Shown: piece by piece, positions 4,235 through 33,360 of the stretch
How positions within the stretch are numbered: the first letter of the stretch is position 1
Layout: every line of letters starts with the position of its first letter
From: Patescibacteria group bacterium
GTDB lineage: Bacteria > Patescibacteriota > Patescibacteriia > 2-01-FULL-39-33
Assembly (NCBI GenBank): GCA_041650895.1
Contig: JBAZKF010000001.1
Location: 509,006-573,005, forward strand
Length of the DNA: 64,000 bases
Direction: 5' to 3'
Notes under the pieces: model-generated
Told to the model about the DNA's origin: nothing
The model's database searches: none
What the model saw: the letters and a program-made list of their open reading frames with translations, nothing else
Translations under genes and position numbers: made by a program

Positions 4235-5326
4235 ATGAAAAAAATCATCCTCGCAATCATCTGTAGCGCCGGCTTACTCGCTATCTCCCAGCCAGCCCTG
4301 GCCTACACTGCCGTCGAAGGCAACCTAATTAAAACCAGCAGCAACTCGGCCGTCTATTACATTGACGGTTCAGGTTATCGGCACCTTTTTCCCAATCAAG
4401 AAGTTTTCTTCAGTTGGTATAAAGGTTCATGGAACGATCAAATCATCACTACCGTGGCTGATTATGAACTATTGCAAATTCCAACGGGAAAGAACGTTAC
4501 CGTCAAACCGGGCTACGCTTTGATTCATTTTGACAACAGTTTGAGGATGTATGCCGTTCTGCCGGGTGGCAAGCTTTGCCGCGCTCCGGCTCATTACAAT
4601 AATTACCAGTACAACCGCGCTTTGATTATCCCGGCGAGTTTTGAGAGCGACTATTACAATGATGGCGTTTGTGACATTACCGAGAATCAAAAATTGCCCG
4701 ATGGCACGCTCCTGAGATATGCCGGATCCAATGACATCTACTATATTCAAAATAGCCAAAAAAGACATATAACCGAAGCCGGATTCAATGCCAATAATTT
4801 CCGCTGGGACTCAGTAATTGAAAATATTGATTCTTCCATGTACTATCCTGACGGCGGGGATATTGTCGCCCGCGAAGACAACCTCTACAGCATCAGCTAC
4901 AGTTTTGGCAACAGTTACTACAGCGGTTATAACTACACTTGCGCTGAAAACTGGACCTGCTATTCCTGGAGCGCTTGCGCTAACGGCTCCCAATACCGCA
5001 CTTGCCGAGATAGCAATGGTTGCGGTACCTCCTACAACAAGCCAATCACCGCTCAGGCCTGTTACAGTTGCAGTGAAAGCTGGGCTTGCAGTTCTTGGTC
5101 CGCCTGCTCCTACGGCAAACAATACCGCACTTGCTGGGATAACAACAGTTGCGGCACGACTGCCAGCAAACCTATTACTTCTCAAGCGTGTTACAATTGC
5201 AATGAGAATTGGAGTTGTACTTCTTGGAGCATCTGTTCTAGTGGAGTGAAATACAGGGAATGCCTGGACACCAACCGTTGCGGCACCACTATCGGCAAAC
5301 CGGCCGGATCCCAAACCTGCAATTAA
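4235..5326 (+). CDS. secreted protein with C-terminal TSP1-like cysteine-rich tandem repeats
   Basis: Signal peptide MKKIILAIICSAGLLAISQPALA. The C-terminus has 3x ~43-aa repeats: C-x3-W-x-C-x2-WS-x-C-x2-G-x-QYRTC-x-D-x-N-x-CGT-x3-KP-x3-Q-x-C. Confidence 0.6.
   Translation: MKKIILAIICSAGLLAISQPALAYTAVEGNLIKTSSNSAVYYIDGSGYRHLFPNQEVFFSWYKGSWNDQIITTVADYELLQIPTGKNVTVKPGYALIHFDNSLRMYAVLPGGKLCRAPAHYNNYQYNRALIIPASFESDYYNDGVCDITENQKLPDGTLLRYAGSNDIYYIQNSQKRHITEAGFNANNFRWDSVIENIDSSMYYPDGGDIVAREDNLYSISYSFGNSYYSGYNYTCAENWTCYSWSACANGSQYRTCRDSNGCGTSYNKPITAQACYSCSESWACSSWSACSYGKQYRTCWDNNSCGTTASKPITSQACYNCNENWSCTSWSICSSGVKYRECLDTNRCGTTIGKPAGSQTCN
4940..5323 (+). repeat. 3 tandem ~129-bp coding repeats (6-Cys module, thrombospondin type-1-like WSxC..G.Q.R.C)
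   Basis: CAENWTCYSWSACANGSQYRTCRDSNGCGTSYNKPITAQACYS / CSESWACSSWSACSYGKQYRTCWDNNSCGTTASKPITSQACYN / CNENWSCTSWSICSSGVKYRECLDTNRCGTTIGKPAGSQTCN. Confidence 0.65.
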
Positions 5327-5372
5327 TTTAATGCTTTCAATAATCCATAAAAGACCAGACCAGAAAAGAAAA

Positions 5373-5400
5373 GCCCGGCGACCCGCCGGGACTTTTTCTT
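5373..5400 (+). terminator. rho-independent terminator
   Basis: cccggcg-acc-cgccggg stem followed by a T-run. Confidence 0.6.
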
Positions 5401-5434
5401 TTGGCGGTTTTAATGTTAAAATGAAGTCACTGAT

Positions 5435-6529
5435 ATGAAATATATATTTATTTTAGGCAATAACCCGGAACTATCAACGGCCGAAATCTCGACTGTACTG
5501 CCCCAAGCCAAAATCATCAAAAAAAGCCAGTCCTTCTTGGTAGTTGATAGCTCTGAAATCGACTGCCAACAATTAATGAAACGCCTGGGCGGAGTAATTA
5601 AAATCGGTTTAGTATTGGGTGAACGTCCGGAAGCCCAACCGATTATCGCTTCAGCCATATCCAAGAAAGACGGTCGCTTTAATTTCGGTTTGAGTTTTTA
5701 TGAACAAAAAACCAGCAACTGGGGGTTGAACATCAAAAAGCAATTAAAAGAACAAGGTATCGCTTCCCGCTTGGTAACTAGCCGCGAGTCGGCCTTGTCT
5801 TCAGTTATTATCACCAAAGAAAAATGCCAGGACTACATTATAGCTCCGGGCTTTTTTGCCCAGACCTGCGCCGTACAGGATTTTAAGGAATTTGGCAGGC
5901 GGGACTTCGGCCGACCGGCCGCCGACGCTTACTCCGGCATGTTACCGCCCAAAGCCGCCAAAATGATGATCAACTTAAGCGGCGCTAAGCTAACCGATAC
6001 CATCCTTGACCCATTCTGTGGCTCCGGCACAATCATTTCCGAAGCGCTGGCCATGGGCTACACCAATTTAATCGGCACCGATCTGTCGGCCAAAGCTGTG
6101 GCCGATAGCCAAAAAAATCTGGAATGGCTGGCGAAAGAACTATCAATTACCGATTACCGGCTGTCAATCGATCAGATTGATGTCAAGGAGTTAGCCGACA
6201 AGATTAAATCCGCTTCAATCGACGCTATTATCACCGAACCATATCTGGGTAAACCGATAAGGGGCCAGGAAAGCTCGGAACAAATTAAAAAAACTATTGC
6301 AGAATTATCGGACTTATACCTAATCGCATTCCAGCAATTCAAGAAAGTCCTGGCCAAGAACGGCCGGATTGTCATGGTTTTTCCCGAGTGGCATCTGCAT
6401 GATAAGATTTATCGCCTCAATATTAACCAACCCATCGGCCGATTAGGTTTCAAGCACCTGGACAATGGCAACCTATACTATAAGCGCGAAGACCAAAAAG
6501 TTTGGCGCAACATTACTGTCTGGCAATGA
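5435..6529 (+). CDS. putative RNA (guanine-N2) methyltransferase, UPF0020/Trm11-like
   Basis: Motif I DPFCGSGTIISEALAMG and motif IV-like ITEPYLG (a DPPY variant). The N-terminal ~150 aa looks THUMP-like. Confidence 0.5.
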   Translation: MKYIFILGNNPELSTAEISTVLPQAKIIKKSQSFLVVDSSEIDCQQLMKRLGGVIKIGLVLGERPEAQPIIASAISKKDGRFNFGLSFYEQKTSNWGLNIKKQLKEQGIASRLVTSRESALSSVIITKEKCQDYIIAPGFFAQTCAVQDFKEFGRRDFGRPAADAYSGMLPPKAAKMMINLSGAKLTDTILDPFCGSGTIISEALAMGYTNLIGTDLSAKAVADSQKNLEWLAKELSITDYRLSIDQIDVKELADKIKSASIDAIITEPYLGKPIRGQESSEQIKKTIAELSDLYLIAFQQFKKVLAKNGRIVMVFPEWHLHDKIYRLNINQPIGRLGFKHLDNGNLYYKREDQKVWRNITVWQ

Positions 6530-9552: not shown

Positions 9553-10500
9553 TTACTTTTTTTCTCCCCAATCAGGCCGAGCCGTTTGACCCTTATTAGC
9601 GGCTAAATATTTGTAAGCTGAGAGAGCGGCCTTAGCGCCTTCGCCGGCGGCAATTACTATTTGTTTGAACCCGACGTCGGTGCAATCGCCAGCGGCAAAA
9701 ATCCCCTTAACACTGGTCAACCCTGCCTTATCAGCCTGAACCTCCCCCCGCTCATTCAAATCAACCACACCCTTAAGCCAGGCGGTCTTCGGACTATAGC
9801 CGATTTCTATAAAAACACCGTCCAGTGATAACTTCTTATTTTCGTTATTCTTTAAATCCGTATATTTAATACTGGCAACTTGGCCCTCGCCCTCAATCGA
9901 AACAACCTTCAGACCGCAAGTAACGCTAATATTTTTAATTGCTTTGACCTTATCCACTAATGTGGCTTCGGCTGCAGCATCACAAGTATCAGAGAGTAAA
10001 AAAACTTGCTTAGCCAATCGAGAGAGATACTCGGCCGCTTCCGAAGCGGCATTGCCGCCGCCAACCACTGCTACGCTTTTATTCTTGAACAAGGGTCCGT
10101 CGCAAGTGGCGCAATAAGACACGCCTCGTCCGGTAAACTCCTTTTCTCCGGGCACGCCCAAATCACGCGGCGTCAAACCAAAAGCCAAGATTACCGCTTC
10201 AGTCTGATATTCTCCTTGTGTAGTTTTAACCAAAATTTTCTCACCTTCAGCAACAGCCAAAACCTCATCAGAGATAAACTCGGCACCCCACTTATCGGCC
10301 TGCGCTTTCATTTGTTGCGTTAGTTCAAAGCCACTGATAGATTCCGTACCGGGCCAATTCTGAACTTCATGCGCCAGAGCGGCTTGGCCGCCTACGGCTT
10401 TGGCGATTACTAACGTTTTGAGTTCGCGACGACGGCAATAAACAGCCGCCGTCAGACCGGCTGGGCCTCCGCCGATTATAATAACATCGTAATTAGACAT
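9553..10500 (-). CDS. trxB: thioredoxin-disulfide reductase
   Basis: GGGPAG FAD motif, redox-active CATC, and an NADPH-binding GGGNAASE motif. Confidence 0.9.
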   Translation of the reverse strand: MSNYDVIIIGGGPAGLTAAVYCRRRELKTLVIAKAVGGQAALAHEVQNWPGTESISGFELTQQMKAQADKWGAEFISDEVLAVAEGEKILVKTTQGEYQTEAVILAFGLTPRDLGVPGEKEFTGRGVSYCATCDGPLFKNKSVAVVGGGNAASEAAEYLSRLAKQVFLLSDTCDAAAEATLVDKVKAIKNISVTCGLKVVSIEGEGQVASIKYTDLKNNENKKLSLDGVFIEIGYSPKTAWLKGVVDLNERGEVQADKAGLTSVKGIFAAGDCTDVGFKQIVIAAGEGAKAALSAYKYLAANKGQTARPDWGEKK

Positions 10501-10813
10501 ATTTTTCTATTTCCGCCTTTAGTTGTTCCTTGCCCTGTAAACCCATCATGGTATTCTTCACTTCACCATTCTTAAAAACAATCAAAGTCGGTATGGACAT
10601 TACATTATATTTTCCGGCGGTCGCGGGGTTAACATCAACGTCCATAGCACCCACCTTGGCCTTATCGCCTATTTCCTTAGCTAACTCCTCAATAATCGGC
10701 CCCTGCATCTTGCATGGGCCGCACCAAGTGGCAAAAAAATCAACCAATACGACTTTATCGCTTTTCAATACCTCGGCCTCAAAGTTAGCGTCGGTAAAAA
10801 TTATTTCTGACAT
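10493..10813 (-). CDS. trxA: thioredoxin
   Basis: WCGPCK active site in a 106-aa protein. It overlaps trxB by 8 nt, consistent with an operon. Confidence 0.9.
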   Translation of the reverse strand: MSEIIFTDANFEAEVLKSDKVVLVDFFATWCGPCKMQGPIIEELAKEIGDKAKVGAMDVDVNPATAGKYNVMSIPTLIVFKNGEVKNTMMGLQGKEQLKAEIEKYV

Positions 10814-10900
10814 AAAATTATAATTAATAATAAGTAGATCCTATCAAATAACCATATTTAAGAAGCATCTAGCCCAATAGCTTTAACAGGCTGAATCTTA

Positions 10901-13900
10901 TCATTCTTCGTTTCCTAGGTCAATCTGAGGAGCGGCGGCAACCGTTACTGTTGTTGATCCATTGCCTATTTGACCCGATCCCGTAGCAGTCAATTCACCG
11001 ATCACCGACATTATCTCCGGATTAGACGGTTCTCCGGCCATGGGATTTGCTGGTTGGATTGTTCCCATACCTTTAGAACCAGCCGTTCCATTTGCTCCCA
11101 AAACGACCGGTGGACCGATAACCCCAGTAACCGACAACGGGGTAGAACTAACAAAAAACGGATCGCTACCGGAAGAGTCAGCTGTTGTTGAGGAGTTATT
11201 TTGTAAAAAAATCGGCGAACTACTGCTTAAAACAATATTCATTTCATCATTAACAACTATATCACCCAAGTCGTCGGTATTATTATCTGAAGTCTCATCA
11301 TCGCTTTTAACCGCCAGAGCATGCCAATTAAATCTCATCTCCTCTGTAAACGGCAGATCGACTGCAACAATAAAGCCGGTGGAGCTTTGCGCTTCTATCC
11401 AATAATCATGCCCGGAAACATTAAGTAAGGGGGTCAGCGTGATTATCGGATCAACATCATAGGGCTTAGCAAAATGAACAGCGGTAGAGGTTGCACCGGC
11501 AGACAACTTAACTGTGCCAGCCGCATCCTTATCCAAATAAATATGATCCTTAAACACCACCTTTGATTCAAATCCTGCTTCGCCGATAACTGTGATGGTA
11601 CCGTAAAAAGTGGCTGAAGAATTTACCGCTAATGAATCCAATACTTCTAAATCATCAAGCGGAGAGTCGTCAACAACTAAGGCCGACTCAGTGCTGGAAG
11701 CGATAATTCCGGATAATTGAGCGGACAGAACCCCAAGTTCTTGCTCCTGACGCTGAGCAACCTGCAATAAATAAAATGGCAGATGGTCGGCGCGATAGCC
11801 CTTGGTTCGGCCGTCATCAAGATATAATTCCGGCAAAGCATCTCTGATTTCTTCGGCGATCAAACCAAAGTCAGTCTGCCCGGTCTGTTTCCAGATAAAC
11901 GATTTGACTTGCAATCCCAATAAAGCGTCGATATTCAAGCTAGTATCAATGATATCATCTTTATACTCTCGAGATGACGGATTAACATTAGTCAAAGTTC
12001 CGTTATTGGAATAAACAGCGCCATTGGTATCTAAGGTGGAAATATTTACGGTTTTAGCTTCAGCATCAAAGGTAACAAAAGGCAGACCGTCATTATAATC
12101 AAGCCATTGATAACTTTTAGCGCTATCAAAAGACAATAACTCAGTTGAGGTAGTAAAATAAATATCCGCAGCCGACGAAAAATCTGAGGCAAAAAAGCTA
12201 ACATGAGCATCACGATTAGTTGAGAAAACTGCGAGATGATCTTTTATACCCACTAAATCCATATCGGATCCAAAAACAGCAGAAGTAGAAGCATGACCGG
12301 AAATCATTGGAACATCCATGAGGCCTTTATTTATATAGAACTTGAGCCCATAATTGCCATCATTTGTGAGTTGGAGCCAATCATTAGGCGATGTAACGGT
12401 TAATTTATGAGTTGGGGTAGTGGTGACAACACCAATGGTCGTAGTAGAATTTAGATTCGTCTCACCGGCAACCTTAAGCCCGCCACTGCCGATTATCACT
12501 CCGAAAAACTTGCCCAAACCGACGGTTATCAAATCCCTTAACACCTGTAAACCGCCAGACACTAACGAGCCAACCCTGGCGGTCGGCGTATCCAATCCCG
12601 GAAGCTTTATAATCACTAACCTATTGGGGCTTACAGACAATGGCAAATAAGCCCTGTTCCCGGAGACTTCCACTCCCCAAGGATTGCCCAAGGTGCTGAT
12701 TGAATCAACAAAATACGGATTATACGGGTCAGAAATGTTAATAATTTTCAAAGCTGCACCCTTATTATCAACAACATAAGCATAATCACCTTGAACCGAT
12801 AAGCCGGTAGATCCTGAAAAATCATTTATATCCTTGTAAAATTCCAACTGAGACCCTCCAACAATTACCGGATTAGTGGAAGAAGAAATGTCAATAATCC
12901 TAAATACCTCGGTAGAAGTGACCCCAATGTCTATAGGCGGTCCAAAGCAGTCATGAGTGGTATAAGCATAACTACCCTTAACAACCACATCCCGGCCTAA
13001 CGGCGGCATATCCAATAAATCACCGCCAACAACAATCGGATTAACCGGATCAGAAATATCAACGATCCTGAATACATTAGTTGAAGTAGCAACATAACTG
13101 ACGGTGTAGGCGTATTTTCCCTGAACATCAATGCCCCGAGTCTCACCGGGGAAATTAGTAACGGGATTACTGATTCTCCTTGGCTTGGAAGGATTAGACA
13201 CATTGATGATTTGCAAACCATCTTCACCGGTTAAGAGACTGGAGTAATAAGCGGTATAAAGCAAACCGTCTATGACTTTTAATTTTCTTAAAGCATAATT
13301 AGCGATATAATCTTCTCCAACCTTTTCCACTGGATTAGTCGGATCGGAAATATCCAAAATAGATAAAGTATTAGTGCTTTGATAAGAGTACTCCTCAAAT
13401 CCGATATAAGCGTATTTCCCATCAATATCAATGCATCTGGCTCCCAAACCGGCACCCGGCCTCAAAGCAAAACTATCATTTACTATAATCGGATTATCAG
13501 GATTGGAAATATCAAAAATTCTTAACTTGTTAGTAGAGGTCGGAGATTGTAATACTACATAGAGATAATCGCCATAAACCATGGAGTTAGATGCCCCGCC
13601 ATGAACTTCTGGCAAAGAAGTAGTAACATAACTTGGAGCTGAATAAAGCAAAGTGGAAGTAGCAATTTTTAGGTTAGAAAGATAAGGCGAAGAAGTCACA
13701 CCGACCAAGCCATTAGTTGCCTGTAAAACTCCGTTTAAACTGCCAATGGTAAGGTCGCCAGAAAGATAAGGCGAAGAAGTCACACCGACCAAGCCATTAG
13801 TAGCTTGCAGGATGCCGTTTAGACTGCCAACGACTAAATTAGTAGTAGTAGTGATTCCCGCTACCTGCAAATCTCCACCAAAGTAATTCTTGCCATTTGT

Positions 13901-25472: not shown

Positions 25473-27563
25473 TTACGCTTTTTCTGCAGCTAACGCTTTA
25501 GCCATATCATCAAGAAATTTACGCCAGCTGCTGGGGAAAGCCATATCCGAGGGCAAACGCAAATCAGCCCGGGGACTGGCGGATAATGTTCCCACTTTGG
25601 GTCCGTTAGGACTGGCATCGCGTTTGAACTGATTTTTCAACAACTGATGTAAAAAAGTTTCCAACCACTTAAGTAAATCTTCTGGTTCATAAACACCCTT
25701 AAAAGCTTCACAAACCAACTGAAATAAACGTCTCGGCGAATTGCCGGCGCGAATAAAATGATACATATCAAAATCAAGCGCCGGATATTGACCGATTATT
25801 TCTTCCGTAATTTGAGAGATATGTATTCCATCTGACTTAACCAACTCAGCCGAGGCTTCTTTGTCTAAGATATGATAGATGATTGACGAAACTTCGGGGC
25901 CGAATAACTGCTTATCGGCAATCCATTTCAACAACTTATTAACCAAAGTTTTGGGGATGCCGCAATTGGGGTTGTACATGCTCATCTGATCACCGTTATA
26001 GGTGCAATAACCCAAAATGCTTTCCGACAAATTGCCGGTACCGATAGTAAAGCCCAAATCCATGACAGTCTGCGTTCGTTCGCGCGCCTGAGCATTCTCG
26101 CATTGCAGACAATTCCAGCAGGGCTCATGGCCAATAGCGCGCAAATGAGCGGTAACTTGTTCTTCAATCCCGACTTCCTTAAAGGTCGCGCCTAAGGCGT
26201 TAATCAAGTCAACGGCATCCTGGTAGGTTCCAGTAGGTCCGAAGGTCGTCCCTGGTCCAGGCATGGTTACGGCTGTGATTTTTTTCATATCCCAACCGCC
26301 GTAACGGCAAGCCAAAGCCAAATTAAGAAAAGCTAAGGTTGAATCGCGACCGCCGGAAATGGCAATCGCCGCCTTAAGCTTCTCCGGGTCAGGGAAGACT
26401 CGCCGCAACCGCTCAAACAAACCGATTGACGCGATTATGAGAATGCGTTCGCAACGTTTATCCAGAGTATCGGGATCACCGGGCACAAACGGATAGGAAT
26501 CGATTTTCCTCAGCCAATTCTTATCACCGCAAATACTCAATAAATCAATGGGCACCGTCCGCGCCTTATGCTTCCAACCCCTTAGCGTATTAGAATTACT
26601 CTTATTGCGCAAACGCTCGTTATTTAAACGATGAATATCCACATCTGCTACCAATAATTCAGCTTCTTCTGCCTTATATTGTCCGCCAAACAGCGGATTG
26701 CTGTTGCCGGAATTAAACGGTTGGCGTTCCGCCAGAATACTGCCGTTCTCGGCAATCAGGCAGTGCCCGCCAAAAACCGTTTCAGCGGTGGACTCGCCTT
26801 GGCCGGCCGAGCAATAAATATAAGCGCAGACCGAATTGCCGGAAATCGCCTTAGCCAAAATATCACACCGATAATCCTCCTTGCCCACCAATTCATTAGA
26901 GGCCGACAAATTAAAAATAATATTAGCTCCGTTATCGGCATGAAACAGCGAGGGTCGCAAATTAGCCCAGCTATCCTCACAAATTTCCCCGGCTAACACG
27001 CCCAAACAACCCCCCCCGGACGTAAGCAAAGGAAAAATCAAATCGTTGCCTATAGGCACAAGGGCAGTTTTATCACCCCAAGCTGTAGGCATGGAGATTT
27101 CCGTGTCATCACCCAACAAGGAAGCTGAATTAAACCAACGATTTTCGTAAAATTCACCGTAATTCGGTAAGAACGTTTTGGCAATCACCCCTATAACTCG
27201 CCCATAATGGCAAACCGCCGCCACATTAAACAGCTTATCTTGAAAATACACAGGCAAACCGATAAGACTGATCAAATTAAATTCGGATGTTGCTGTCAGA
27301 TAAATCTGTAATGCCTTCAGGGCATCGCTAAGCAGTCCGGCATTAAGGAAACCGTCACCCAAAGAATATCCTGTCAAATTCAATTCCGGAAAACACAGCA
27401 CATCAACGTGTCGCGCGATCGCCTGATGAGCGTAAGAAACGGCGATTTGGGAATTCTTTATCGCATCGCCGATAAACACCCTGGGTACAGCCGTAGCGAC
27501 GCGCAAAAACCCCATTTGCCGATGATCCAATTTCAAACTAAGAGGCAAGTTTCTTACTGGCAT
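25473..27563 (-). CDS. nadE: glutamine-dependent NAD+ synthetase (CN-hydrolase + synthetase domains)
   Basis: N-terminal nitrilase-like domain (CFPELNLTGY, catalytic C in EICED) and a C-terminal SGGRDS P-loop. The 696 aa length matches the long NadE type. Confidence 0.9.
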   Translation of the reverse strand: MPVRNLPLSLKLDHRQMGFLRVATAVPRVFIGDAIKNSQIAVSYAHQAIARHVDVLCFPELNLTGYSLGDGFLNAGLLSDALKALQIYLTATSEFNLISLIGLPVYFQDKLFNVAAVCHYGRVIGVIAKTFLPNYGEFYENRWFNSASLLGDDTEISMPTAWGDKTALVPIGNDLIFPLLTSGGGCLGVLAGEICEDSWANLRPSLFHADNGANIIFNLSASNELVGKEDYRCDILAKAISGNSVCAYIYCSAGQGESTAETVFGGHCLIAENGSILAERQPFNSGNSNPLFGGQYKAEEAELLVADVDIHRLNNERLRNKSNSNTLRGWKHKARTVPIDLLSICGDKNWLRKIDSYPFVPGDPDTLDKRCERILIIASIGLFERLRRVFPDPEKLKAAIAISGGRDSTLAFLNLALACRYGGWDMKKITAVTMPGPGTTFGPTGTYQDAVDLINALGATFKEVGIEEQVTAHLRAIGHEPCWNCLQCENAQARERTQTVMDLGFTIGTGNLSESILGYCTYNGDQMSMYNPNCGIPKTLVNKLLKWIADKQLFGPEVSSIIYHILDKEASAELVKSDGIHISQITEEIIGQYPALDFDMYHFIRAGNSPRRLFQLVCEAFKGVYEPEDLLKWLETFLHQLLKNQFKRDASPNGPKVGTLSASPRADLRLPSDMAFPSSWRKFLDDMAKALAAEKA

Positions 27564-27582: not shown

Positions 27583-28515
27583 TCAAAATTCTTCTTTCAA
27601 GATTATTTCTACTATCGGATTGCATAACGATTTGATAAAAACGAAATCCGACCCGATCAGCAGTTTAATGGCCGCGGGACAGGAGTCTGTGGTGTAAAGA
27701 CGGTTAATCAATCCTTGTTCGTGAGCTTCAACCAGCCTGCTAACGGCTTGGGCATTAACAGCGGCGTGAGGCACGACCAGATTGATCGTTGCCGCTCCCT
27801 GGGATTCCAAAATCTTGGCACATTCAATCAAAGTGCCTCCAGTCCGAGTCAAATCATCAACAATCAATATATTCCGCCCTTGCACTTCGCCCTCTTTTAT
27901 GGTGACGATGCGCTTATCGTCTTGCCTAATCTTCTGGCAAGTGATTTGCCGAAAATTACCCAATGTCTTGCCGAAACGCTTTTGCGCCCCCTCGTCGGGA
28001 AATGCCACTGACCAATCATAAAAGTTTTTTGATAGATAGGGAATGGCTGATTGCAAGAAAATCAAAACATTATCGGAAAAATAAAATTCCTCGCGCAAAT
28101 CATGAATGTCAAAAATAAAAATCCGGGGTGTTCCGGCATTGCCCGGTATAGCGTCAAACATTCGAGCCAAACTCTTGGCCGTAACAATGTCGCCGGGGCT
28201 CATTTTCCGTTCCATGGTGCCGGTGGGGTAAAAAGGTAAAACCACGTTGAGTGACCTGGCGCCATAGCGCGGCAAAGCCCATAAAACGGAAAACTGGCGG
28301 AAAATTTCCAGCGGATTTTCCAAGGAAGCAAAAAACCAAACGTGTTTGTTTTTCACCGCTTCAGCGTCTATGGACGTATCGGGGAAACCATCGGGAAACT
28401 CACCCCACCTGATGGGAGAATACCCAACCGGATAATGCTCAAGGGCTTTTGCTACAGCACAAGCGAACCCTTCCATGATCGGACAACTCAAAATAACAAT
28501 ATTTTTAGTAGGCAT
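27583..28515 (-). CDS. prs: ribose-phosphate pyrophosphokinase (PRPP synthetase)
   Basis: NILIVDDLTRTGGTL PRPP-binding motif and an FSVLWALPRYGARSLNVVLPFYP N-domain. Confidence 0.7.
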   Translation of the reverse strand: MPTKNIVILSCPIMEGFACAVAKALEHYPVGYSPIRWGEFPDGFPDTSIDAEAVKNKHVWFFASLENPLEIFRQFSVLWALPRYGARSLNVVLPFYPTGTMERKMSPGDIVTAKSLARMFDAIPGNAGTPRIFIFDIHDLREEFYFSDNVLIFLQSAIPYLSKNFYDWSVAFPDEGAQKRFGKTLGNFRQITCQKIRQDDKRIVTIKEGEVQGRNILIVDDLTRTGGTLIECAKILESQGAATINLVVPHAAVNAQAVSRLVEAHEQGLINRLYTTDSCPAAIKLLIGSDFVFIKSLCNPIVEIILKEEF

Positions 28516-28680
28516 GGTTTCTATTCCTTTCTGGTTGCGTTGTTACTGCTCACATTAAGTTGTAATGTTCTCAGACTTTCTAAGAACAATCAATTTTTAA
28601 TTGCTCTAGTGAAAGGCAGAGGCGAAGCAAATCGCCTCTGCGTAAAATTAACTCAATCTAACTAATAGCGCCTATTGCCT

Positions 28681-29463
28681 TTAGAATAAAACCTCGGGGA
28701 AAATGGTATCGTCGTCTTCTGGCAGATAATACAAATTCGAACAAGCGCTGGATCGTCCTGCAACTAACTCCGCGCCCTTGATCTGATTTTCCTCTGGCAC
28801 ATACACTTGCGGGCGAATCAGCCAAATCGGCTTATGTTTGGCAAAAAAATTATTATAAAGCACCCGGCAACCGCGCAACTCATTACCCGCCCTTTTTCGC
28901 AAATGATACCAATACTGAAAAGCTTTGGTCTGCCAAATATGCAACGGCACCTGGCATTCGCCGCCAGTTCTTAAAGCGCCTCGGCCCAACATGCCCAAAG
29001 CCAACTCAATGGTCTTTTTCAAAGTATTCGCCGTAGGAATTTTATATTTTACCGCTTTCTCTAACAAATACTTCATGCGGGCGGCATTTTCAGGCGCGCC
29101 CAAAACAACTTTGCCCGATTTCATCCACTCGCCAAATTCCACGTTGGTGGTCAAGGCCGGCATATGTTTAAGCTCTCGCGGTATCCAGAACAGGATTACA
29201 TCGGCGCGATTGAGCCCCTCGTCTTCCCAATCGATTTGAGCCTGACGATTGACGTCTTTGCGGAAACCGCCGCCTTTCTTTTCCGGATCGTAAACCGTGC
29301 CGGAAAAACCTAATGACTCCAGAATGGCGAAAGCGCCGAATTTCCAAGACAACCCCTTCTCGTCTCGCGGGATTGGTCCGGCCAAAAACACCGACTTAAT
29401 CACCTGCTCAGGAAACGATTCTTGGCCGTGCACGATAGTAAAACCGTATTTTTCAGACATCAA
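28681..29463 (-). CDS. nucleoside 2-deoxyribosyltransferase-like (N-glycosidase fold) protein with extra C-terminal domain
   Basis: SVFLAGPI..., DWEDEGLNRADVILFWI and TTNVEFGEWM resemble the NDT/Rcl signatures (FLAGP...D..ADxVVA...GTAFExG). About 110 further residues are of unknown fold. Confidence 0.45.
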   Translation of the reverse strand: MMSEKYGFTIVHGQESFPEQVIKSVFLAGPIPRDEKGLSWKFGAFAILESLGFSGTVYDPEKKGGGFRKDVNRQAQIDWEDEGLNRADVILFWIPRELKHMPALTTNVEFGEWMKSGKVVLGAPENAARMKYLLEKAVKYKIPTANTLKKTIELALGMLGRGALRTGGECQVPLHIWQTKAFQYWYHLRKRAGNELRGCRVLYNNFFAKHKPIWLIRPQVYVPEENQIKGAELVAGRSSACSNLYYLPEDDDTIFPEVLF

Positions 29464-30024
29464 TTATTTCTCCTCTTCGGTCGATGGCGAAAACTGCTGA
29501 TACTGATTAGCCAGAGCCAGCAAATCACTGTCGGAATAGATTGTTCTAATGATTTTCTCCCACTCATTACGCGATTTGGGCAGACACCAAGGGCAGACAG
29601 AACGCCGCCAAACATAATAAGGAGTAATCTGCCCCGTAAACGGATCTTGGCGCGTGTAATGAATAACCTGGCAATTATGGATACGATCAAGCGGATCTCT
29701 GGAACCGTCCAATTCAACATATTGAAAAGGAGTAAGCCGTTCTAGACGAACTATAAAACACCACATCACTTCACCATGATTAACCACGACTACGTTACTC
29801 TCCGAACATTCGCGATGGAACGTCCCCAAAACCCGATCAGCTCGCATACAGGCATTAGCCATGGATTCTCCGCCAAGAGGCGACCAATAAAAACCATTGC
29901 CATTGCGATTAAGTAGAATCGGACCATACTTCTCACGCCGTTCATCATCAGGCAAAACACTTAATTCTCCCCATTCACGCTCGCGCAGATTATAGTCTAT
30001 TTTCCAATGGCCGTTTAAACCCAA
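29464..30024 (-). pseudogene. histidine-phosphatase (PGAM) family-like ORF lacking the N-terminal RHG region; possible remnant or non-ATG start
   Basis: SPLGGESMANACMRADRV and VVVVNHGEVMWCF match PGAM-family middle and C-terminal motifs. The ORF starts at TTG, and the in-frame upstream 150 nt has no ATG and no RHG motif. Confidence 0.3.
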
Positions 30025-30299
30025 TAAAGCAGCGGACTCGCCGGCGCCAAACTGGGAGCAGTCGGAGCCGAATACCTTAGCGGGAAAAAAGGTTGGGGAG
30101 AAAAAATTAACACTGAAAAATATATTATTGATCAGGAGGCAGAGGCTAATGATATTTTTGAAAGATTCAAAGAGTTAGAATCAGAAAAAACAAATTCATC
30201 GGCATAGGCATGATCTATTCCTCCTTATTGTTAGATTGATTTTAAAGTGCTGCTTCCTTCAAACCAAGACGCCTACTAAGTAAGCGGCTCAGGCAAAGG

Positions 30300-30332
30300 G
30301 CGGAACTGTCAAAATTTTTGACAGTTCCGCCG
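30300..30332. terminator. perfect 16-bp-stem palindrome 3' of pncB (no U-tract)
   Basis: ggcggaactgtcaaaa-t-ttttgacagttccgcc. Confidence 0.4.
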
Positions 30333-30362: not shown

Positions 30363-31994
30363 CTACGACAATACCGGGATTGGCGCTTCCGAAGCCATCA
30401 GTAAGTGCATCTGCTGATAAACCCTTTCAGTCACCGCCACCTTGAAAGGCGTTGGATTTTCCGGCCGCAGATGGTCTTCGCGCATTTCCATTTCAAACTG
30501 CTGCCTGATATACGCTTGAACGGCCAAAACGCCTGGGGCAAGAGAATCAAAACGTCGGCCATTAAAAAACACGAGCTGATGCAATTCCTTACAAGTGGCC
30601 GGCTTAACTTTGCAACGAACCGTCTCATTGATCGGATCGCGGCAAAGAATCTCATTAGACGCGCGGATCGACTGGAGCACTTCATCATATTCTTCATCAG
30701 CCACCAAAAGATCTAAAATGGCTTTCCCGTCCGCGCCATACAAACGAATCGCTCGTTTGGCGCCGGGAATCGTCATCTTGTCGATATTCATTGACAGTTT
30801 AATGACCGGGCGATTGCCGATCTGCACCAGCTTATACACGCCGCCCAGAGCAGGACAATTTGCCAAGCGGGTACCGATGCCAAAATGGGTGATGTGATGC
30901 TTCTGTCTGCGAAAACTCCATAAAATGGCTTCGTCAATATCATTAGACACTACAATCGCCTGTTTGGTGAAGTCACAATGTGCGGCTGGCCGATATTTCT
31001 TAATAAGCTCATAACCGCCGTAAACAATATTGGACAGATATGCCAAGTCGCCGGAATCCAGACGAACACCCAACGGGGTGTAACCGCATTCAGCCAAAGC
31101 CAGGGCGACCGCCAGATAATTGGGCAAACCCGAAGTCTCCACGTTATACGTGTCAATTAAAGCCAAAAACCTATCGGGATTAGCCCAGGCGTAATCAATG
31201 AATGCCGCCAATTCTCCCTGATTGGTTTCGCTGGGAAAATAACCCTTTAAGCAATCCTGGCGATCTAGGGCAAGGACGGTAAAGTTATAAGTACGCTTTC
31301 CGTCCTTAGTGGTTAATATTCTTTGGCATTTCAAGTCTTCCGCTGAATAGCTGGTAACAAAGGAATGAGCGTGCGTTCCGCCGACCGGCAAATGATGAAG
31401 CAAACCAGCCAAAACATTGGAGGTGGAATCAAATCCGCCCATCACCGCATAATGCGAAGCGGAAATGGCGCCGTCCGGACCGGGGGCCCGGCGCAGAGCG
31501 AATTCCATCAATGTCGCCTCCCAACCGGCCGCATAACGCATGCGCGCCGCGTTCGTAATAATTTGTGTCGGATAATTCGTCGAGTTCAGAAGGGTCGTTT
31601 CAATCAATTGAGCCACGCAGACCGGTCCCGCCACACTCACTAACGGCTCTCGTGGAAACACCAAAGTCCCTTCTTCCGGCGCCCACACTTTGATTTTCAT
31701 CTTCAATGAATTGAACCAGTCAAAAAATTCCGGTTCATAGTGACTGCAAACGGGCAAACTCTTCAGATAACTGATTTCTTCCGGCGTCAAATAAAACTCG
31801 GACAAATAATCAAGAATGCGGCCCAAACCGGCAAATACGGCGTATTGGCCGCCAAATGGAGCGGTGCGGTAAAACAGATCAAACACCGCATACCGTTCTT
31901 CCCGGCTGGTTTTCCAATACGTGTAGAGCATGGAAATCTGATAAAAATCGGTCAAAAGCGGGGAAATTCTTAATGGCGATCCTTGTTCATTCAT
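30363..31994 (-). CDS. pncB: nicotinate phosphoribosyltransferase, long (eukaryote-like) form
   Basis: N-terminal LLTDFYQISM (the PncB TDxYQxTM motif), 543 aa. Confidence 0.75.
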   Translation of the reverse strand: MNEQGSPLRISPLLTDFYQISMLYTYWKTSREERYAVFDLFYRTAPFGGQYAVFAGLGRILDYLSEFYLTPEEISYLKSLPVCSHYEPEFFDWFNSLKMKIKVWAPEEGTLVFPREPLVSVAGPVCVAQLIETTLLNSTNYPTQIITNAARMRYAAGWEATLMEFALRRAPGPDGAISASHYAVMGGFDSTSNVLAGLLHHLPVGGTHAHSFVTSYSAEDLKCQRILTTKDGKRTYNFTVLALDRQDCLKGYFPSETNQGELAAFIDYAWANPDRFLALIDTYNVETSGLPNYLAVALALAECGYTPLGVRLDSGDLAYLSNIVYGGYELIKKYRPAAHCDFTKQAIVVSNDIDEAILWSFRRQKHHITHFGIGTRLANCPALGGVYKLVQIGNRPVIKLSMNIDKMTIPGAKRAIRLYGADGKAILDLLVADEEYDEVLQSIRASNEILCRDPINETVRCKVKPATCKELHQLVFFNGRRFDSLAPGVLAVQAYIRQQFEMEMREDHLRPENPTPFKVAVTERVYQQMHLLMASEAPIPVLS

Positions 31995-32665
31995 TACTCA
32001 TTCTCCTTTTCTGCTGTTAATTGCGGATAGATTTTCAGCATAAACCATTGCACCAAAGTAAAAGTTTTCAAGTCGGGATAAGGCATACAACTCAATTCCT
32101 TAATGGAGATCCAACGAACTTCCGTACTTTCCCCTTCCGCGTCTAAACCAAAACTCGTCCGGCTGTGATCAAATTCATCATCATTGAACTTACCATAACC
32201 CAAATGAAGGCGCTCGGTAATAATTCCCGGCGAGGTGAAAAGAGGAGTGCCGAAATTAATCAACTCAAAACGCCCGGCGACTGTCTCCAAGTCAACCAAT
32301 AAGCCCAACTCTTCCCGAGCTTCACGAGCCATTGCCCAGACCACCGTTTCGCCTTGATCAATGTGGCCGGCTGGAACCTCCAGTATGGGCGCAATATGAT
32401 TCGTGGCAAATATTGTTGCCGGACGATCTTGCATAACCATAGCTACGGCGCGCCGATCGCGATTGTAAACCAGAAACGCCACGGCGTCTTTCTTTTCCAC
32501 AACCTCCTGCTTTCTCCCGGTACCACGCCAGACCCTGATCCAACCATTATAAACCAAATCATAGGCCTCACTCAAAACGCTCTTCACTCCGCTTTGATCG
32601 CTGTTGCCATTGTCCATAATTTGTTCTCCTTCTTTTGTTCGGTTAATGTTTCTATTGCTAATCAA
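31994..32665 (-). CDS. NUDIX hydrolase
   Basis: Nudix box GHIDQGETVVWAMAREAREELGL (Gx5Ex7REUxEExGU). Overlaps nadD and pncB at their start and stop codons. Confidence 0.75.
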   Translation of the reverse strand: MISNRNINRTKEGEQIMDNGNSDQSGVKSVLSEAYDLVYNGWIRVWRGTGRKQEVVEKKDAVAFLVYNRDRRAVAMVMQDRPATIFATNHIAPILEVPAGHIDQGETVVWAMAREAREELGLLVDLETVAGRFELINFGTPLFTSPGIITERLHLGYGKFNDDEFDHSRTSFGLDAEGESTEVRWISIKELSCMPYPDLKTFTLVQWFMLKIYPQLTAEKENE

Positions 32666-33360
32666 ATTTGATAACCGTAAAGTCCGTTAATCTTGATATA
32701 CTTGGCGATGTTGGGAGGAACTGACTTCTCCCAATCACAACAATTCCCGGCAATTGAAGCGCGAATTTGCGACGAAGAAATATCTATTCCCGTATTCAAT
32801 GAAGCTATTTTAAATTGCCAAGGCAGTGGCAAGTCGCCTAATTCATAACCGGGCCGGGGATAAACCAGCCAATGCCATCTCTGGCAGGCAAACAGCCATT
32901 CGCCTCGCTTCCAACGCGCTTGAATCTCATTCAAACCGCCGAACTCCGGACGCGGTATTACCGAGTCTGAGCCGGTCAGCCAAGTCAGCTTAGCTTGCGG
33001 ATATTTTCTTACCAAAAGTTCCAGCCAATCTATAGTCGCCGTATTACGGCCGAAGATATCATCATACCAGACTTGAAAATTAATCGGACTGCTTGACATT
33101 TGACGAAAATCATTAACCATCATCTCGGTCATGGCAATCCTGTGATTAATACAATCGGAACAGAACCCTGCCGAGCTGTCGGCGCACTTTGTGCAAACCG
33201 CCAAATGCTTATCCGGCCGTTCACCGCAAGGAATCCAAATCATCAAGTCATAATCAGCTTTTCTTTCACCTCGCAAGACATCAGCCAAAATAGCCTGATG
33301 CCCGTAGTGGGGCGGATTAGCAGAACTGCCACCGATAATTATGCTTTTGGGATTTAGCAT
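32662..33360 (-). CDS. nadD: nicotinate/nicotinamide mononucleotide adenylyltransferase with Cys4 insertion
   Basis: GGSSANPPHYGHQ matches the (H/T)xGH cytidylyltransferase motif of NadD/NadM. Insert: CGERPDKHLAVCTKCADSSAGFCSDC. Confidence 0.75.
   Translation of the reverse strand: MLNPKSIIIGGSSANPPHYGHQAILADVLRGERKADYDLMIWIPCGERPDKHLAVCTKCADSSAGFCSDCINHRIAMTEMMVNDFRQMSSSPINFQVWYDDIFGRNTATIDWLELLVRKYPQAKLTWLTGSDSVIPRPEFGGLNEIQARWKRGEWLFACQRWHWLVYPRPGYELGDLPLPWQFKIASLNTGIDISSSQIRASIAGNCCDWEKSVPPNIAKYIKINGLYGYQI

Follow-up and report, generated by a model that had tools for sequence, protein, structure and literature searches.

The gene at 28681–29463 on the minus strand of the 64,000-nucleotide stretch of Patescibacteria DNA analyzed here (the window) encodes a domain-loss variant of a protein family that is already catalogued and biochemically uncharacterised. 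We believe, with a probability of roughly 0.6, that its product is a functional, Nudix-less derivative of a widespread enzyme of about 385 aa and that it acts as a Glu108-dependent N-glycosidase on a nucleotide of NAD turnover, in series with an ADP-ribose pyrophosphatase (ADPRase).

The gene and its operon

An open-reading-frame scan found the frame 28681–29463 intact on the minus strand. The motifs quoted in the earlier note, SVFLAGPI (residues 23–30), RADVILFWI (85–93), NVEFGEWM (106–113) and GGECQVPLHIWQTKAFQYWYHL (166–187), are all present in the translation, and the strand, which that note left unstated, is minus. The ATG at 29460 is the likely start codon, with GGAG located 9 nt 5' of it; the in-frame TTG at 29463, which directly precedes this ATG, is an unlikely start. 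The resulting coding sequence (28681–29460, minus strand) specifies 259 aa followed by a TAA stop. The product is a truncated protein of the DrHyd/NDT-like-Nudix family and is identical to NCBI entry MFA5124693.1 (P0001), a Patescibacteria MAG protein from a 958-kb contig. The stop codon of the preceding gene abuts the start of this gene, which suggests that the two are translationally coupled. A scan for terminators and promoters around the gene gave nothing above shuffled expectation. An alternative genetic code was rejected in view of the long intact ORFs under table 11 and the TAA stop.

The gene is the fifth in a cluster of seven co-oriented genes, all on the minus strand, and the identities of its neighbors place it inside an NAD operon. 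The cluster opens with a NadD-like nicotinate-nucleotide adenylyltransferase (32662–33360), followed by a stand-alone ADPRase-type Nudix hydrolase of 223 aa with an intact Nudix box (31994–32665), a nicotinate phosphoribosyltransferase (NAPRT, 30363–31994; TIGR01513, 421 bits) and a disrupted histidine-phosphatase gene (29464–30211). Downstream of the target gene are a Prs-like ribose-phosphate diphosphokinase (27583–28515) and, as the last gene, the glutamine-dependent NAD synthetase NadE (25473–27563). The earlier note had located the target gene between pncB and prs. The prs-like gene does adjoin it, but on the other side the broken histidine-phosphatase gene intervenes and pncB lies one gene further upstream.

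Several features of the neighborhood are recorded here in their own right. The Prs-like protein scores 109.5 bits, just under the TIGR01251 cutoff of 113, and may be a divergent PRPP synthetase. The interval from the NAPRT stop to the phosphatase start holds a 33-nt inverted repeat (30299–30331) with the perfect palindrome ACTGTCAAAAATTTTGACAGT; this repeat occurs once in the window, is 91% conserved in the 73% relative and may act as a hairpin for termination or attenuation, or else bind a regulator. The histidine-phosphatase gene is broken in the window genome only. Its 5' stub keeps the first 8 codons (ATG at 30211, stop at 30167). Some 229 nt, among them the RHGES catalytic motif, have given way to about 161 nt of AT-rich DNA of unrelated sequence (30025–30185), and the 3' part (29464–30024) is 83% identical to the intact 271–272-aa orthologs in loci L001 and L090. 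The end of the operon differs between close relatives, as a 310-aa ORF without a Pfam match occupies the NadE position in L090 (7915–8847).

The N-terminal NDT-like domain and Glu108

Residues 1–145 (29026–29460, minus strand) form an NDT-like catalytic domain (PF15891, DrHyd superfamily). The match to PF15891 (Nuc_deoxyri_tr2) covers residues 22–124 and positions 2–103 of the 105-position profile, with 51.8 bits against a gathering cutoff of 30 (E = 1.2e-13). PF05014, the NDT family proper (EC 2.4.2.6), reaches 13.7 bits, far under its gathering cutoff of 28.8. Structural comparison returned YtoQ (12.3), MilB (11.7), several NDTs (9.5–11.1), Rcl (10.1) and TIR domains (8–10.7), all aligned over about 106–138 residues, which is about the size of the N-terminal domain, and Foldseek concurs. 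The protein thus has the three-layer Rossmann-like alpha/beta fold common to NDT, Rcl and MilB, and the earlier note was right to place it in that superfamily. A literature search for PF15891 or Nuc_deoxyri_tr2 gave no match, and the function of YtoQ is not addressed in the YtoQ literature that was found. NARP3, considered as a relevant system, proved unrelated.

The earlier note proposed that a conserved nucleophilic Glu should be looked for in the ExG motif, and Glu108 answers this description. Its codon is the GAA at 29137–29139 (minus strand), and it is the putative ribosyl-accepting nucleophile of the ExG motif. Across 118 homologs the invariant residues of the family are G28, R32, W39, E79, D87, W92, R95, T105, N106, E108 and G110, and the target protein has all of them. 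E108 lies in helix 103–112, after strand 88–92, that is, in the helix after strand 3; in the TIR/DrHyd/SLOG clade the catalytic residues sit in the helix following strand 3 (PMC9503650). A search of PDB sequences with a profile of the N-terminal domain gave 4mcj as its sole match, and E108 is conserved there as well. When the family was aligned to human DNPH1 with hhalign, E108 fell on E104 (GYE(104)LG) and D87 on the QQAD aspartate; the alignment is statistically weak (E = 0.032, probability 1.6%), so we count it as consistent with the fold rather than as proof. The DNPH1 sequence used was validated against PDB 8qhr and 4p5e; PDB 8qhq has Q at the position of the DNPH1 glutamate. Taken with the fold topology, the profile alignment is consistent with E108 being the counterpart of the DNPH1 nucleophile E104.

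DNPH1/Rcl is a 2'-deoxynucleoside 5'-phosphate N-hydrolase, and MilB and BlsM are CMP hydrolases. The target shares 11–17% identity with these enzymes and with the NDTs of PF05014; it differs from them in the additional linker module of its family and, given the NAD context, probably in its substrate. BDI_0649 of Parabacteroides distasonis (PDB 4mcj), a structural-genomics entry described as a putative nucleoside deoxyribosyltransferase, is 20% identical to the target, but it is a single domain of 150 aa without the linker and beta subdomain.

A family of NDT-like-Nudix fusions

Searching 5.8 billion proteins gave 593 relatives of the target. Among the matches listed, almost all are 380–400 aa long, the alignments cover about 92% of the query, and PF00293 (NUDIX) is often found at the C-terminus; the exceptions are the identical entry and one 255-aa protein that is 73% identical. 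Homology extends across the NDT-like domain, the linker and the beta subdomain (E = 1e-52 to 1e-67). The architecture of the family, about 385 aa in total, is thus PF15891 joined to a conserved helical linker and an ADPRase-type Nudix domain. Species-representative genomes contain at least 572 loci of the family, whose hosts include many Patescibacteria, Myxococcota, Actinomadura, Spirillospora, Glycomyces, Planctomycetota and others; jumbo phages carry it as well, and gp334 of Bacillus phage G (AEO93593.1, UniProt G3MA75) is a full-length fusion member. Homologs are annotated as 'NUDIX hydrolase' or as 'nucleoside 2-deoxyribosyltransferase domain-containing protein'. We know of no member of PF15891 or of the fusion family with a measured activity.

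The fusions resemble the target over its residues ~9–245 with 40–49% identity and share its invariant residues, linker and beta subdomain; the CPR members also share its NAD-cluster context. The target differs from them in lacking the whole Nudix catalytic core, about 125 aa. ADP-ribose pyrophosphatases with an N-terminal beta domain (E. coli-type 1viq/1g0s, NudK-like 1viu and NUDT5) offer a second comparison, in which the target keeps the small beta subdomain only and no Nudix box. In the bifunctional NadM (NMNAT-Nudix), the partner of the Nudix domain is an adenylyltransferase, whereas in the family of the target it is a glycosidase-fold domain. The family has other architectural variants too (P0263, P0128 and P0140): in one member the Nudix box has an internal deletion, and proteins of 236–241 aa consisting of linker and Nudix without the NDT-like domain may be real split genes or metagenomic fragments.

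Gene context was scored in the best 80 of the at least 572 loci, an NAD cluster being defined as at least two core NAD genes within 10 kb. Such clusters surround 16 of 37 CPR loci, 4 of 8 loci of unclassified MAGs and 0 of 35 loci of other phyla. The CPR figure upholds the link to NAD metabolism that the earlier note had drawn from the position of the gene. The recurrent partners are NAPRT, PncA, NadD, NadE, NAD kinase (NADK), NrtR-like Nudix regulators, ADP-ribosylglycohydrolase (ARH), histidine phosphatase and a Prs-like kinase. No NAD genes were found near the 35 non-CPR loci (Myxococcota, Actinomycetes, Planctomycetota and others), and no interpretable conserved neighbors emerged around these high-GC loci, where simple ORF calling produced spurious antisense frames. 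Of the phage copies, one is 4 kb away from NrtR-NAMPT-PncC/NMNAT genes and two adjoin a dNMP kinase. A small radical-SAM-like protein recurs in five family-containing CPR NAD clusters (L003, L012, L014, L033 and L073), and a 310-aa protein without a Pfam match occurs in two loci only, L003 and L012; the coordinates concerned in L003 are 10135–11097 and 4691–5623.

Proposed reaction and its competitors

We infer from its fold, invariant Glu, conserved basic residues and ADPRase partner that the enzyme is an N-glycosidase for a phosphorylated product of NAD turnover. The NDT-like domain would cleave or transfer an N-ribosidic bond, with Glu108 as the carboxylate that stabilizes or accepts the ribosyl group, as in DNPH1/Rcl, MilB and NDT. 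The substrate would be a phosphorylated ribonucleotide from NAD turnover, as gene context and the conserved basic residues R32, R95, K117 and R164 suggest. The likeliest candidates are NMN, which would yield nicotinamide and ribose-5-phosphate, or AMP from ADP-ribose cleavage, which would yield adenine and ribose-5-phosphate. The ADP-ribose pyrophosphatase partner would act in series, fused in most relatives and encoded here by the separate Nudix gene three genes upstream. Base and ribose-5-phosphate may then be returned to Prs and on to NAPRT, NadD and NadE of the same operon, and the gain of the stand-alone ADPRase would have made the fused Nudix domain dispensable. Against this proposal count the NAD-free surroundings of the 35 non-CPR loci, the two phage copies beside a dNMP kinase, which fit deoxynucleotide metabolism, the linker dN/dS of about 1.1 between the window and L090 (on very few changes, see below) and the fact that Glu108 was matched to DNPH1 by a weak profile alignment together with fold topology.

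An ADP-ribosyl cyclase (ARC) clade of DrHyd was predicted for phage G gp334 (Iyer et al. 2022). An enzyme of the window acting as an NAD+ glycohydrolase or in an ADP-ribosyl-cyclase-like manner would release nicotinamide from NAD(P)+, or open a cyclic ADPR isomer, to give ADP-ribose, which the Nudix partner would convert to AMP and ribose-5-phosphate. We consider this rather unlikely, though it is the strongest competitor of the N-glycosidase acting on a phosphorylated nucleotide.

More doubtful is a pyridine base-exchange or nucleoside-level enzyme, in line with the suggestion of the earlier note. It would act on nicotinamide or nicotinate riboside, or would replace nicotinamide by nicotinate on NMN or NR by way of a covalent ribosyl-Glu108 intermediate, with the histidine phosphatase supplying or consuming the nucleoside. 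NDTs are defined by their chemistry, transglycosylation via a Glu-ribosyl intermediate. The clusters use the nicotinate branch (PncA, NAPRT, NadD and NadE), which would make a conversion of NMN or NR into the nicotinate series useful. A His_Phos_1 gene with weak similarity to CobC (alpha-ribazole phosphatase) is beside or near the family gene in the lineage of the window and in at least 6 of 37 CPR loci. The PF05014 score far under threshold speaks against such an enzyme, however, and conservation of Arg and Lys residues points to a ligand that is phosphorylated. Moreover, in the window genome the phosphatase is broken and the NDT-like gene is intact, so the two are not strictly interdependent.

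Loss of the Nudix domain

Downstream of the NDT-like domain, the target retains a conserved helical linker specific to the fusion family (residues 146–192; 28885–29025, minus strand), in which R164, G167, E168, P172, W176, F181, Q182 and W184 are kept and GGECQVP is conserved. It is followed by a beta hairpin and short strands (residues 193–236; 28753–28884, minus strand), which are what remains of the N-terminal beta subdomain in an ADPRase-type Nudix module, with E224, K228, E231 and R236 kept and R226Q and N230A altered. The last part is a low-confidence, unconstrained tail (residues 237–259; 28684–28752, minus strand) that ends ..EVLF* at the position of the first Nudix strand. The protein stops 4 residues short of the REFRSP core of the full-length homologs. 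Past this end, the homolog alignment continues through REFRSP...ELPGGSS...ExxEETGL, a Nudix box with near-invariant glutamates. PF00293 has no match in the target, since the Nudix box (GX5EX7REUXEEXGU) falls beyond its stop codon in the alignment; the C-terminal Nudix core with the box glutamates that characterizes the fusion family is absent from the protein. The 165-nt spacer to the prs-like gene (28516–28680, minus strand) contains no Nudix remnant in any frame. A frameshift or hidden remnant was rejected, as all three frames of 28516–28683 are riddled with stops and tblastn was empty; no fused-type Nudix domain was found by tblastn in the 64-kb window, L001 or L089.

The same truncation is common to three related Patescibacteria genomes with largely syntenic operons. 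Besides the window genome these are the genome of L090, whose truncated homolog has 265 aa and is 88% identical to the target, and that of L001/L002/L008, with 255 aa and 70–73% identity. The part of the Nudix domain past the first strand was deleted in the common ancestor of the three genomes. Among the best 80 of the at least 572 loci, truncation is confined to this lineage; one other match runs off its contig. P0227, on a phage-like contig, is a complete gene of 260 aa that adjoins an RNA ligase and has the same end boundary (..ELEVVL*). Its truncation arose independently of the Patescibacteria lineage, and as it ends at the same boundary, the NDT-like domain, linker and beta subdomain appear to form a viable unit with at least two separate origins.

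Selection was estimated as dN/dS by the Nei-Gojobori method. Over residues 1–145 the ratio is 0.07–0.16, which argues that the gene is functional. Over the linker (146–192) it is 0.36–0.49 in the two deep comparisons (with L001, 70–73% identical) and 1.13 between the window and L090, the latter on very few changes; over the beta subdomain (193–236) it is 0.16–0.27, and in the tail (237–259) no constraint is detectable. Purifying selection is thus strong on the NDT-like domain and weaker on the linker and beta subdomain, and the last ~23 residues are drifting. In the comparison of the window (28684–29460) with L090 (6001–6795), dS is 0.69 until codon 145 and then 0.07–0.19, a drop of about tenfold that suggests a recombination breakpoint at the domain boundary.

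These data bear on the possibility that the gene is a pseudogene in progress, functionless after the loss of the Nudix domain in an eroding operon. The Nudix deletion and the unconstrained tail would fit such decay, as would the disrupted histidine phosphatase of the window genome and the unrelated ORF at the NadE position of the 88% relative. Yet the ORF is intact in all three truncated-lineage genomes at a dS of about 0.6–0.85, the catalytic domain keeps all the family-invariant residues at its low dN/dS, the start is preceded by a Shine-Dalgarno sequence and abutted by the upstream stop, and an independent lineage has the same truncated architecture as a complete gene. We therefore regard decay as very improbable.

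The stand-alone Nudix hydrolase is not the detached half of a fusion protein, because it shares 23% identity with the fused Nudix domain (an hhalign match); it also has its own N-terminal strands, and gene fission was rejected on these grounds. It is present in all three truncated-lineage operons, and a homolog occurs in only two other NAD-cluster loci. It is likely a functional replacement of the lost fused domain. On the most parsimonious account, the fused Nudix domain became redundant through a separate ADPRase, and we favor displacement by a different ADPRase over fission.

The earlier note had treated the C-terminal ~110 aa as an unknown independent domain. Alignment, structure model and a search with the region alone contradict this: the region is an interdomain linker plus the remnant of a lost ADPRase-type Nudix module, and not a new domain. 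When residues 150–259 were searched by themselves against 1.84 billion representative proteins, 293 clusters matched, nearly all of them ~385-aa NDT-like-Nudix proteins aligned at their residues ~145–250, so the region is essentially confined to the fusion architecture. In the model of the full-length Patescibacteria homolog P0005 (pLDDT 94.2), ADPRase structures align over 165–174 residues (1viq over 174), more than the ~130-residue Nudix core. That these 110 aa form a domain with a function of its own, unrelated to Nudix, is hardly credible: searches of Pfam, NCBIfam and the PDB gave no match for the part alone, which would fit such a domain, but the region corresponds to the linker and beta subdomain of the fusions at every alignment column and is found almost only within them, and the ADPRase structure alignments are longer than a Nudix core.

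Implications

With the supposedly unknown domain accounted for, a false lead is removed. What is left is a large family, represented by at least 572 loci in species-representative genomes and by copies in jumbo phages, and found repeatedly in the NrtR-type NAD salvage and ADP-ribose recycling clusters of Patescibacteria. The boundary shared by the two independent truncations marks out the smallest stable catalytic unit, namely the NDT-like domain, the linker and a small beta sheet, and the 259-aa minimal unit is a handy construct for biochemistry and crystallography.

As Patescibacteria depend on salvage, a putative N-glycosidase in their NAD operon is probably the sign of a step still missing from NAD turnover. 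More tentatively, the DrHyd-Nudix family, including its Nudix-less form, may be an NAD and ADP-ribose recycling enzyme of CPR bacteria and jumbo phages, and could be an NMN nucleosidase or a nicotinamide/nicotinate base-exchange enzyme. If so, together with ADPRase and Prs it would close a loop from spent NAD to PRPP and pyridine base, and in phages the pair could either restore NAD precursors or break down immune signals derived from ADPR.
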